NCBI GenBank assembly: GCA_046297575.1
Contig: JBKBHR010000015.1
Span: 2,664-66,663 of the forward strand
DNA: 64,000 nucleotides
Direction of reading: 5' to 3'
Source of the DNA: Erythrobacter cryptus
GTDB lineage: Bacteria > Pseudomonadota > Alphaproteobacteria > Sphingomonadales > Sphingomonadaceae
Shown here: positions 24,154 to 26,686 of the stretch, piece by piece
Numbering within the stretch: the stretch's first letter is position 1
Layout: every line of letters begins with the position of its first letter
Notes under the pieces: generated by a model
Database searches by the model: none
What the model saw: only the letters and a program-made list of their open reading frames with translations
What the model was told of the DNA's origin: nothing
Made by a program: the position numbers and the translations under genes

Positions 24154-24825
24154 TCAGGAGAGCGCGTAATCGCTCACGAAGGCATTGGTCTTGCGCTCCT
24201 GGCCGAAGGTGCTGGTGGGGCCGTGGCCAGGGACGAACAGCACATCCTCGCCCAGGGGCCAGAGGCGCTGGGTGATCGAATTGATGAGGTCCTGGTGGTT
24301 GCCGCGCGGGAAATCGGTGCGGCCGATGCTCCCCTGGAAGAGCACGTCGCCGACGATGGCAAAGCGGCTGGGCGCGTGGAAGAACACCACGTGGCCCGGG
24401 GTGTGGCCGGGGCAATGGATCACGTCCAAGGTGAGTTCGCCCACGCTCACCGTATCACCATGCTTGAGCCAGCGGGTGGGCGTGAAGCTCCTCGCCACCA
24501 TCCCCCAGCGCGCCCCGTCCTCATCGAGCCGCTCGATCCAGAAGCGATCATCCTCGTGCGGGCCTTCGATGGGCAGGCCCAGTTCGTCGGCCAGCATCCC
24601 GGCCTGCCCGCAATGGTCGAGGTGCCCGTGGGTGACAAGCAGCTTCTCGAGCGTCACGCCCGCCTTGGCGACCGCCTCCTTGAGCCTGCCCAGATCCCCG
24701 CCCGGATCGACCAGCGCGCCCTTCATGGTCTTGGTGCACCAGATCAGCGAGCAGTTCTGCTGCAAGGGCGTTACCGGGATGATCGCGGCGCGCATGGGGG
24801 GGAGGGGCTTGGGAGTGTCGGTCAT
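24154..24825 (-). CDS. Metallo-beta-lactamase-fold hydrolase (YcbL/GloC-like)
   Basis: THGHLDH, PGHTPGH, GDVLFQGSIGRTD, PGHG. Confidence 0.92.
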   Translation of the reverse strand: MTDTPKPLPPMRAAIIPVTPLQQNCSLIWCTKTMKGALVDPGGDLGRLKEAVAKAGVTLEKLLVTHGHLDHCGQAGMLADELGLPIEGPHEDDRFWIERLDEDGARWGMVARSFTPTRWLKHGDTVSVGELTLDVIHCPGHTPGHVVFFHAPSRFAIVGDVLFQGSIGRTDFPRGNHQDLINSITQRLWPLGEDVLFVPGHGPTSTFGQERKTNAFVSDYALS

Positions 24826-24862
24826 GTGCGGGATGTGGCGGCTTGATCGTCTCTGCGCAAGT

Positions 24863-25630
24863 TCACAGCTTCGCGATCAGGTCTGTTCGAGCTTTCAAAG
24901 TGTCGATCGCGGCATCGCCATGCTGCAACACGACCTGCCGCACCTTGATCGCATGAGCTTCCAGACTGTGGACCAGCCTTTCGCAGAGCGCCAAGTGCTG
25001 GATTCGGCTGAGCGCTTGCGTTTCCTCGAGCGACGCCTCGCAATGGCTGAGCCACACCGTGATATTGCTCGCGACATCACGAAAAGCCGCATCCATCGGA
25101 TCGGCGCCGCGGCCCCACATCTCGACGATTGCCTTTTCCGAGAAGACTATGCTCTCGCGTTGCTCAGGCAGAGCCGTCCGCAAATAGGCGGTGACATGCA
25201 GAAATCGGTCCCGCTCGCGCAGATCTGCACGTCGCCACGGTCGCTGCTTCTTCATGGGCAATCGACGAAAGGGCGCTGAAGGCTTCAGAAGCGGCGGCTC
25301 GCCTTGGCACTCGTCGCGCAACCGCGCCTCGGTGGCGCGGTCAATCTTGCCCGACCAGTTGTCTGCAAACCATCTGCGAGCGGTCATGTAAGCTGCAATG
25401 AAAGCGGCGATGGAAAGGGCCAAACCCGCCAACGCAGCGTCATCGGCTGCCAGCAATGATCCAAAAACAACCGCCCCGCCGATCAGCGCAACGAGGGCTG
25501 CTACAAGCGCAACCAGAAAAGGTCCGACTTTCCGCCAAATTTGGCGGATGATCCCATCAACCAGCGTGATGATCCTGATCAAGATCCATCCGGCAACTGC
25601 AAGCAGGGCAAGCGCGATGATGATCTGCAT
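24863..25630 (-). CDS. Low-GC orphan membrane protein (about 3 N-terminal TM helices + helical C-domain)
   Basis: 255-aa ORF; visibly lower GC with many A/T-ending codons compared with the flanks; no recognisable motif. Confidence 0.7.
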   Translation of the reverse strand: MQIIIALALLAVAGWILIRIITLVDGIIRQIWRKVGPFLVALVAALVALIGGAVVFGSLLAADDAALAGLALSIAAFIAAYMTARRWFADNWSGKIDRATEARLRDECQGEPPLLKPSAPFRRLPMKKQRPWRRADLRERDRFLHVTAYLRTALPEQRESIVFSEKAIVEMWGRGADPMDAAFRDVASNITVWLSHCEASLEETQALSRIQHLALCERLVHSLEAHAIKVRQVVLQHGDAAIDTLKARTDLIAKL

Positions 25631-25636
25631 TACAAC

Positions 25637-25664
25637 AGGTTAGTTCAAATGCATTGTTTGGCAA
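25637..25664 (-). promoter_or_regulatory. Putative sigma70 promoter giving a leaderless mRNA for the 255-aa orphan
   Basis: Minus strand reads TTGCCA-N16-TAACCT-N6-ATG; no SD upstream of the ATG. Confidence 0.4.
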
Positions 25665-25676
25665 GACATATCCCAT

Positions 25677-26357
25677 TCACACCCGCCCTCCCTTCCACAC
25701 AACCCGGCCAATAATGGCCACCTCCTCGGCCGCGACTTCCACCGGCGGGTAGGCGAGGTTCTGCGAGAGCAGCGCGATGCGCCCCGGCCCGGCGCTGGCG
25801 AGGCGCTTGACCATCAGCGTGTCGCCCAAGCGCACCACGTGGATGCCATCGCGCAAGGGCCGCGGGGTGCAATCGACGAGAATCTCATCGCCATCATTGA
25901 GCAGCGGCTCCATCGAATCGCCCTCGACCCTGAGCGCGGCGAGGCGCGCACGATCGAGCCCCTGTTCAGCGAGCCAGCGGCGCGAGAAGCGGAAGGTATC
26001 GAAAGCGGCCTCATCGCGCGCCACCCGCCCCGGCCCGGCCGAGGCGCCGAGATCGAGCCGGGGGACTTCGACCCACTCGGCGACGCTCTGCCCTCCAGGG
26101 ACTTCCACGTAGGAATTTTCCTGCACCTCGCGCAATTCCGCCTCGTCCACACCGAAGAAGCGGGCGAGGCGGGCGCGGTCCTGCTCCTCGAGCTTGCGGG
26201 GGCTGCCCTTGCGGATGAACTGCTGGAGATAGGAAGGGTTGCGCCCGATCATGTCGGACAGCGCGGCGAGGCTCACGCGGCGCTCATGCGCCAGTTCCAG
26301 CAGCCGCGCGCGCGGGCCGGGAGGGATTGCGCGGCTGGCTGCGGGCGAAGGAAGCAT
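25677..26357 (-). CDS. CI/LexA-like repressor: HTH + S24 peptidase
   Basis: HTH SLAALSDMIGRNPSYLQQFIRKG; Ala-Gly cleavage site (GASAG); catalytic Ser (VEGDSMEP) and Lys (MVKRL). Confidence 0.92.
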   Translation of the reverse strand: MLPSPAASRAIPPGPRARLLELAHERRVSLAALSDMIGRNPSYLQQFIRKGSPRKLEEQDRARLARFFGVDEAELREVQENSYVEVPGGQSVAEWVEVPRLDLGASAGPGRVARDEAAFDTFRFSRRWLAEQGLDRARLAALRVEGDSMEPLLNDGDEILVDCTPRPLRDGIHVVRLGDTLMVKRLASAGPGRIALLSQNLAYPPVEVAAEEVAIIGRVVWKGGRV

Positions 26358-26363
26358 GAAAAC

Positions 26364-26400
26364 ATCCTACACGAAGGATTTTTCCTAGACAAGTAGGAAA
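26364..26400. promoter_or_regulatory. Chain of inverted TCCT/AGGA half-sites: putative operators
   Basis: ATCCT-N6-AGGAT (26364-26379), AGGA-N4-TCCT (26375-26386) and TTTCCTA-N6-TAGGAAA (26381-26400) in the AT-rich gap between the divergent regulators. Confidence 0.6.
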
Positions 26401-26482
26401 TCAGGTGAAACAAAACAGGAACATCGGGCGAATCGCCCGGTGCAGCGCCTTCGATCCGGCAACCAACAGGGACGCAAGAACC

Positions 26483-26686
26483 ATGCTGCTTCGATCCATC
26501 GAAACCTTCCTGCGCGAGCACAAGCTGCCCGCCACCAAGTTCGGGCGCCTCGCCGCCCACGATCCGCGCTTCGTGCTTGACCTCAGGATGGGCCGCACCC
26601 CCCGCCCCGAGACCGAGCTGCGCACCCGCGCCTGGATGCAGGGCTATGCCGACCGCGTCGCCGCCGAGAAGAAGGAGCGCGCCTGA
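26483..26686 (+). CDS. Small Cro-like HTH protein (67 aa)
   Basis: MLLRSIETFLREHKLPATKFGRLAAHDPRFVLDLRMGRTPRPET; divergent from the CI-like gene; SD-like AGGGA upstream. Confidence 0.75.
   Translation: MLLRSIETFLREHKLPATKFGRLAAHDPRFVLDLRMGRTPRPETELRTRAWMQGYADRVAAEKKERA

Follow-up and report, generated by a model that had tools for sequence, protein, structure and literature searches.

An orphan, predicted three-transmembrane protein as cargo of a single-gene turnover slot behind a core S24 regulator in Porphyrobacter/Erythrobacter-like bacteria

Comparison of relatives shows that a core gene for an S24 (LexA/cI-like) regulator and a core gene for an MBL-fold hydrolase enclose a precise turnover hotspot for single genes, which holds no mobile-element genes. 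The gene content of this interval shows ORF255, the gene analysed here, to be one of numerous single genes that take each other's place as cargo of a variable slot in the chromosome. Its product represents an unannotated protein family, for which the searches described below detect no relatives beyond one slot of one bacterial lineage. The phenomenon itself, i.e., cargo of a hotspot flanked by core genes, is already known; it is the protein family that is new. We hold the structural and evolutionary statements made below (on the gene, its constraint, the lack of a prophage, the hotspot, the confinement of the family and the recombination of its alleles) with high confidence. The window, by which we mean the whole stretch of DNA that was analysed, is 64 kb long, and the closest named genome is that of E. 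cryptus DSM 12079 (Erythrobacter/Porphyrobacter; 93.5% nucleotide identity over 11 kb). The features of the locus are as follows:

24154..24825, minus strand: MBL-fold hydrolase, core gene, right anchor of the slot (profile match, synteny)
24826..24862, minus strand: 37-bp spacer before MBL (motif inspection)
24863..25630, stop codon included, minus strand: ORF255, a predicted 255-aa orphan inner-membrane protein (ATG start, conservation, dN/dS)
24866..25225, minus strand: ORF255 residues 136-255, predicted cytoplasmic up-down four-helix bundle (AlphaFold2, alignment)
25226..25354, minus strand: ORF255 residues 93-135, variable Pro-/Arg-rich linker with low model confidence (alignment, AlphaFold2)
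25355..25630, minus strand: ORF255 residues 1-92, three predicted Ala/Gly-rich TM helices, N-out/C-in (hydropathy, charges, AlphaFold2)
25631..25676, minus strand: 46-bp AT-rich spacer before ORF255, with the same layout before every family member (motif inspection)
25677..26357, minus strand: HTH and peptidase S24 (LexA/cI-like) regulator, core gene, left anchor of the slot (profile matches, synteny)
26383..26398, no strand assigned: perfect palindrome TCCTA-N6-TAGGA (TCCTAGACAAGTAGGA), candidate operator in the gap between S24 and ORF93

The frame of ORF255 is intact in the window, with 255 aa and an ATG start. As had been noted in the original prediction, the gene lies on the same strand as the 'repressor' and 46 bp behind it (25631-25676, the S24 stop codon being at 25677-25679), and its GC content is lower than that of the flanks. 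The GC of ORF255 is 0.59, compared with 0.67-0.69 in the adjoining genes and 0.686 in the whole window, and local GC drops to 0.59-0.61 along the gene from 0.67-0.70 on either side. GC3 is 0.68 in ORF255 vs. 0.83-0.91 in 11 of the 12 neighbours, the exception being L32 (0.71), and in the other family members measured (E. cryptus, L031, and L034) it is also far below that of the adjacent MBL gene (e.g., 0.52 vs. 0.86). The view that ORF255 is rare cargo of foreign composition is supported at the level of base composition and distribution; no paralogue was found elsewhere in its own genome.

Comparison among the three closest DNA sequences (three pairwise comparisons, Nei-Gojobori) gave a dN/dS of 0.11-0.37 for ORF255, which is the range of the housekeeping neighbours (0.11-0.27). 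Relatives with 21-86% identity keep both the frame and the motifs, and an unbroken frame of 250-264 aa is present in all seven full-length family members read from DNA. Codon-level comparison thus shows ORF255 to be a functional accessory gene under purifying selection, and its absence from 209 of the 212 genus genomes makes it dispensable. A spurious or decaying, functionless ORF might be suspected, given that ORF255 is an orphan, that the NCBI product for the E. cryptus orthologue (P0004) has just 119 aa and that the similarity of P0003 (L036) is gone past ~nt 620. However, the seven intact frames, the dN/dS values, the motifs that are kept at 21% identity and the confident fold prediction leave this explanation with next to no probability, and it was ruled out by the selection and conservation data.

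The regulator next to ORF255 is a protein of 226 aa with a Peptidase_S24 match (E 3.6e-20) and a weak N-terminal HTH match. It is present in 179 of the 212 genus genomes, nearly always as a single copy and with 64-93% identity among the matches listed, and the order ALDH, ORF135, ORF93, divergent S24, MBL, MAPEG, and L32 is fixed across relatives. The S24 regulator, ORF93, ORF135, and MBL are syntenic core genes throughout the genus, and a canonical lexA (above the curated cut-off) is located on another contig. Beyond the genus, regulators with 33-41% identity are encoded in six genera of the same order. In three of the six, the regulator adjoins a match to ORF93 or ORF135, and in none of them is an MBL gene near it. 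The core status and fixed synteny indicate that the 'repressor' is an old chromosomal LexA/cI-like paralogue rather than a prophage gene. One flank (~8 kb) encodes SMC, MerR, IHF/HU, FabH, PlsX, L32, MAPEG, and the MBL-fold hydrolase, while the other (~8 kb) holds two small ORFs and genes for an aldehyde dehydrogenase, a TPP enzyme, a 2-hydroxyacid dehydrogenase, and CysRS. Phage genes are lacking within ~8 kb of ORF255 on either side, as are tRNA genes in the 64-kb window.

The 'rexAB position' originally assigned to ORF255 therefore holds for its placement behind a cI-like S24 gene, but not for the prophage setting, which the housekeeping flanks and the core regulator contradict. If ORF255 were a lysogeny-expressed gene of the rexAB type, or a moron, behind the phage repressor of a prophage, both its low GC and its location directly 3' of a cI-like HTH-S24 gene with a divergent small Cro-like gene would be explained. 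Nevertheless, besides the gene content and the genus-wide synteny described above, the missing RexA partner, the lack of any PADLOC match and the absence of relatives from 50,697 phage records (tblastn) and from IMG/VR (exact-peptide scan for close relatives) render this explanation very improbable, and it was rejected. ORF255 is thus shown by its genomic setting not to be part of a prophage, and because the regulator is a core gene of the whole genus, the analogy to lambda cI-rexAB is positional only. The presence of a membrane gene behind a cI-like one need not mean a prophage, and a tempting misreading is corrected here.

The slot extends from the S24 stop codon to the MBL start codon (24826-25676, 851 bp in the window, with no second cargo gene; the same interval in L006-L087), and this distance was measured in 59 relatives. 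The slot is empty (3-16 bp, e.g., ...GGGCGGGTTTAA-GTCCCTTCGC-ATGACC) in 18 of the 59, comprises 64-165 bp in five and 343-1679 bp in 34, and MBL was not reached in two, one with a larger rearrangement (G016) and one in which the locus ended (G012). Across the occupied slots, at least 17 cargo types that are unrelated to each other occur, encoded on one strand or the other. These include a GNAT acetyltransferase, a DUF305 membrane protein, a PhyH dioxygenase, a class-3 lipase (Lipase_3), an oxidoreductase of the old-yellow-enzyme (OYE) type (assigned by sequence inspection, without a profile scan), recurrent orphans of 97, 147, and 191 aa, and several small membrane proteins. When the family HMM was compared with all other slot cargoes, ORF255 proved unrelated to any of them. 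The earlier proposal that ORF255 is cargo in a hotspot, together with its suggested check for different genes at this position in relatives, is therefore borne out. Indeed, the interval combines conserved flanks with emptiness in some relatives and unrelated genes in others, as expected for a flexible slot. Because the cargoes are not known defence genes and none of the 17 cargo proteins of relatives that were tested gave a PADLOC match, the hotspot is a generic one and no recognised defence island. No integrase or repeats were seen at the slot junctions. It should be noted that the GNAT cargo is convergent to S24 in L015, L023, L028, L075, L077, and L083 and that, at the junctions of L015 and L023, the GNAT and S24 stop codons overlap in one shared CTAG, which implies an extremely tight insertion.

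Both ends of the cargo are marked by promoter-like elements. The spacer before ORF255 contains CTTGCC (25665-25660), followed by 15 nt, ACTAACCT (25644-25637), 6 nt and the ATG. This layout is family-wide, i.e., (C/G)TTGCC/G, 11-17 nt, a GCTAnAnC-like box, 5-7 nt and the start codon; there is no Shine-Dalgarno sequence before ORF255, and a properly spaced one is absent before every family member. In the spacer before MBL, CTTGCG (24861-24856) is followed by 16 nt, GCCACATC (24839-24832), 6 nt and the MBL ATG. Both layouts look like the sigma-70 consensus of alphaproteobacteria combined with a leaderless start (cf. Caulobacter promoters). From motif inspection, we infer that the 46-bp spacer holds a promoter of the sigma-70 type that belongs to ORF255 itself and yields a leaderless mRNA; the gene is possibly also transcribed by read-through from S24. 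A scan with a consensus of the E. coli type found no promoter of that type at ORF255, and a terminator scan yielded one terminator-like site, inside ORF255, which is within chance expectation. Most occupied slots (L008-L040 among them) have a near CTTGCA-N16-GCCAYMTC-N6-ATG element before MBL, the -35 box of which abuts the stop codon of the cargo, whereas empty slots do not have it, and MBL may thus switch between read-through from S24 and its own leaderless promoter. The palindrome TCCTAGACAAGTAGGA at 26383-26398 is the sole zero-mismatch copy in the 64-kb window, and no copy of this candidate S24 operator was found upstream of ORF255.

An exhaustive phmmer search of 1.84 billion cluster representatives returned eight representatives related to ORF255, with 23-86% identity in full-length alignments. 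The family profile was positive in three of the 212 genus genomes, namely the source genome, G465 (which matches E. cryptus), and G568, and in one of 401 genomes sampled over 112 genera of the bacterial family. As with the phage collection, tblastn detected no relative of ORF255 in the plasmid collection, and exact-peptide scans of IMG/VR and of JGI metagenome contigs found no close relatives of the window copy. Among the members whose flanking DNA could be read through to MBL, the gene is directly upstream of MBL in all eight contexts (the window, E. cryptus, G568, L025, L026, L031, L034/L035, and L041). Seven of the eight are directly 3' of the S24 stop codon; only a ~20-nt vestige of the S24 3' end is left in L031. 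A ninth copy (L036) adjoins the S24 stop codon on a contig that stops short of MBL. These contexts show that, in the collections searched, the family does not leave this single slot of Porphyrobacter/Erythrobacter-like bacteria. The slot of L034/L035 has gained a lipase gene as well as another copy of S24, and the duplicated S24 3' fragment ahead of the family member P0010 is 80% identical to the window regulator, compared with 60% for the resident full-length S24; this arrangement looks like the footprint of recombination inside the S24 gene. The gene order along the two contigs (L034 3-2701, L035 60-2905) is S24, Lipase_3, a 112-aa S24 C-terminal duplicate, P0010, and MBL.

Despite its narrow distribution, the family comprises at least seven allele classes with pairwise identities of 20-46%. 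Between the window and E. cryptus, dS is 0.02-0.20 in the flanking genes and 0.66 over the whole of ORF255; within the gene, it is 0.215 for codons 1-92 and 1.19 for codons 93-255, and the dN/dS of the latter is 0.13. The part encoding residues 1-92 has the history of the flanks in common with E. cryptus, and that encoding residues 136-255 (dS about 1.1-1.2) is a divergent allele segment. In a 60-nt sliding comparison, nt 99-218 of the window gene are 95-98% identical to E. cryptus, whereas nt 279-578 are 65-73% identical to E. cryptus and 83-95% identical to the metagenomic allele L041. The window gene is, by this comparison, a recombinant mosaic in which the partner switches between E. cryptus and L041. 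Since dS is raised and dN/dS is not, the high divergence of ORF255 stems from old alleles that were swapped by way of the conserved flanks. Evolution in place, whether fast or relaxed, does not account for it; relaxed or positive selection acting in place was rejected as its cause on the same ground, and dN/dS gives no sign of positive selection on ORF255.

Allele replacement is also seen elsewhere in the family. For example, the flanks of L025 and the window are ~92% identical at the nucleotide level, and the family proteins are 40% identical. Similarly, P0002 and P0007, which are 34% identical, both occupy the slot and both come from sample SRR24908177; divergent allele classes are thus shown by these sequences to live side by side in one community. 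Recombination tracts extend into the S24 3' end. The alignments thus show that homologous recombination via the conserved flanks moves the old allele classes between strains and turns them into mosaics.

Hydropathy, charges, and AlphaFold2 agree with the earlier description of a 255-aa ORF with about three N-terminal TM helices and a helical C-domain. Every family member has three hydrophobic segments within residues 1-92; loop 1 and the segment after TM3 carry charges of +3 to +5, and loop 2 is acidic. This positive-inside pattern predicts an external N-terminus and a cytoplasmic C-terminal domain, a topology that is consistent across family members. In the AlphaFold2 model of ORF255 (7-sequence alignment, pLDDT 72.9), helices at residues 2-59 and 62-92 are followed by a linker of low confidence and, at 136-254, by a four-helix bundle, and the C-domain modelled alone reached a pLDDT of 84.2 and a pTM of 0.72. 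The linker carries a conserved PF..L....R.WRR motif. Ten residues are invariant in all seven context-verified members (A5: R142, H145, Y149, A167, W193, E198, L223, A227, R248, and L255), and F143, L150, S160, F163, S164, E165, W172, L201, and C216 are invariant when the most divergent member, P0010, is set aside (A4). Prediction thus shows ORF255 to be an inner-membrane protein with three TM helices and, at its C-terminus, a four-helix bundle on the cytoplasmic side.

Searches of ORF255 and all family members against Pfam, NCBIfam, PADLOC, and PHROGs returned only noise in the TM region. There were no PADLOC-DB 2.0 matches at E <= 0.1 for ORF255 and its neighbours and no consistent PHROGs match for the family. 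The likeness of the C-terminus to XpaC-type proteins, which had been suspected earlier, was not recovered, as none of the 10 members scanned gave an XpaC/Halogen_Hydrol-type Pfam match at E <= 10. A profile search of PDB sequences found only a TM-region match to a TRIC channel (E 0.018), and Foldseek, with either the full-length model or that of the C-domain as query, found only generic helical bundles in PDB and BFVD (best E 0.63). As modelled, the C-domain is a plain up-down four-helix bundle that offers no lead to a known family or fold.

Oliveira, Touchon, Cury, and Rocha reportedly described, in 2017, HGT hotspots in chromosomes that lie between core genes and contain no mobile-element genes. 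The slot of ORF255 resembles such hotspots in its unrelated cargoes at one interval, its turnover by homologous recombination in the flanks and the lack of an integrase. However, it is a tight single-gene slot (3-16 bp when empty) with an exact start at a stop codon and an end at a promoter-like box, and one cargo family with deep allelic classes is confined to it. Class I holins have three TM helices that are Ala/Gly-rich, an N-out/C-in topology, and a charged cytoplasmic C-terminus. ORF255 is like them in all of these traits, but it is two to three times larger than these proteins (<=~150 aa, encoded next to an endolysin), contains a predicted folded bundle and has no endolysin neighbour, and its Pfam/PHROG matches were at noise level (E 4.8-7.3). 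Lambda RexB is a 4-TM channel encoded by the cI-rexA-rexB operon, without a helical-bundle domain. The likeness of ORF255 to RexB/RexAB-type systems (PMC12894663) lies in a membrane protein encoded directly 3' of a cI-like S24 repressor gene on the same strand. Unlike in those systems, there is no RexA partner, no RexB profile match, no PADLOC match and no prophage immunity region, and ORF255 probably has its own promoter. The 434 Hex protein (PMC3564112) is similarly encoded at or after a repressor gene and could act on the repressor; yet Hex is a soluble second product of the repressor mRNA, made from the PRM transcript, and its coding sequence overlaps that of the repressor (PMC3564112), whereas ORF255 is predicted to be membrane-anchored.

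P22 SieA is a 3-TM inner-membrane exclusion protein whose types, <30% identical, are found at one locus (PMC10883804). Both proteins are predicted to be 3-TM inner-membrane proteins without a recognised enzymatic domain, with highly diverged types at one locus, and SieA, too, works as a single gene. SieA has 162-164 aa, is prophage-encoded and lacks a large soluble domain (PMC10883804), whereas ORF255, with the ~3 TM helices of a small inner-membrane protein of this type according to hydropathy, charges, and AlphaFold2, has an additional cytoplasmic linker and bundle of ~160 aa and lies in the core chromosome. It has no sequence or profile similarity to SieA, no consistent PHROG and no tblastn match in phages.

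Within this context, the pattern of a dispensable and rare membrane protein of foreign composition with coexisting old alleles, as is typically seen at loci under pressure from parasites or competitors, hints at a role in conflict. We tentatively propose that ORF255 is a strain-variable inner-membrane conflict factor involved in exclusion, abortive infection, or toxin immunity, a reading that we regard as possible, though short of probable. Recognition of an incoming phage or toxin component would fall to the variable bundle and linker in the cytoplasm, whereupon the Ala/Gly-rich 3-TM module would oligomerise and block passage through the membrane (SieA-like exclusion or toxin immunity); alternatively, the oligomer might breach the membrane (abortive infection). 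The many ORF255 alleles would persist through negative frequency-dependent selection. However, PADLOC, PHROGs, Pfam, and NCBIfam yielded no matches and Foldseek only generic bundles (E > 0.6), the other cargoes (GNAT, OYE, PhyH, Lipase_3, DUF305, and orphans) are not known defence genes, dN/dS carries no sign of positive selection, and the allele diversity could simply be long-lived neutral polymorphism in a recombination hotspot. Mostly metabolic or miscellaneous cargo without a known defence gene, a dN/dS like that of neighbouring housekeeping genes and the lack of a mobile-element association would fit an ordinary accessory membrane protein, concerned with envelope, ion, or stress homeostasis, whose rarity and alleles are by-products of the hotspot. 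This explanation, which we consider only slightly less likely than the conflict role, has to account for at least seven classes with 20-46% identity in one orthologous slot, for classes that coexist in one sample and for a persistently low GC3, all of which would be unusual for simple physiology, as well as for the dispensability implied by absence from 209/212 genomes.

The constant vicinity of the regulator raises a further, unlikely explanation, by analogy with 434 Hex or anti-repressors: ORF255 might be a membrane-tethered partner of S24, the bundle of which binds the regulator or RecA* and modulates autocleavage or availability. The location directly 3' of S24 in seven of the eight members (with the vestige of ~20 nt in the eighth), the S24 3' fragment that travels with the member in L034/L035 and is closer to the window regulator (80%) than is the resident S24 (60%), the entry of recombination tracts into the S24 3' end and the precedent of 434 Hex (PMC3564112) are in line with such a partnership. 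Nonetheless, ~98% of the regulator-bearing genomes of the genus do without ORF255, all eight copies adjoin MBL just as closely, and no candidate operator precedes ORF255. Moreover, the slot often holds unrelated cargo that is encoded on the other strand, and the adjacency of ORF255 and S24 is therefore explained by the slot itself. With regard to the proposed conflict role, its most specific form, i.e., a new single-gene membrane phage-exclusion/Abi factor with deep allele classes maintained by balancing selection in a prophage-independent chromosomal 'moron slot' directly behind an anciently domesticated cI/Cro-like switch, is in our opinion improbable.

If ORF255 is indeed a conflict factor, it would represent an unrecognised defence or immunity family of simple architecture (3 TM helices and a four-helix bundle), and the locus, with one slot, many alleles, and conserved flanks, would be a clean natural experiment suited to allele-swap tests of specificity. 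If the domesticated-switch reading is true, a core regulator locus would serve as a platform into which strain-specific immunity genes are swapped. Function aside, the locus is a compact case of gene turnover at an exact chromosomal position without mobile-element genes.

Several minor observations concern individual gene models. In E. cryptus DSM 12079, the full 255-aa frame of the orthologue is intact (L030 6001-6768), and the sole NCBI-sourced product on record has 119 aa (P0004); this call is probably an annotation error caused by atypical composition. The allele P0003, of the E. cryptus type, is 100% identical to E. cryptus until ~nt 620, beyond which (L036 ~2400-2511) similarity is lost and the frame ends early, at 230 aa, so that P0003 represents a disrupted allele or else a chimera of the assembly. 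In ORF93 (26405-26686 of the window, plus strand; L030 4949-5226), the N-terminal 25-29 codons are in another frame in E. cryptus and L036, and residues 26-93 are 100% identical between the window and E. cryptus/L036. The true start of ORF93, judged from these alignments, is probably the internal Met at ~26483, which would give a Cro-like protein of ~67 aa.
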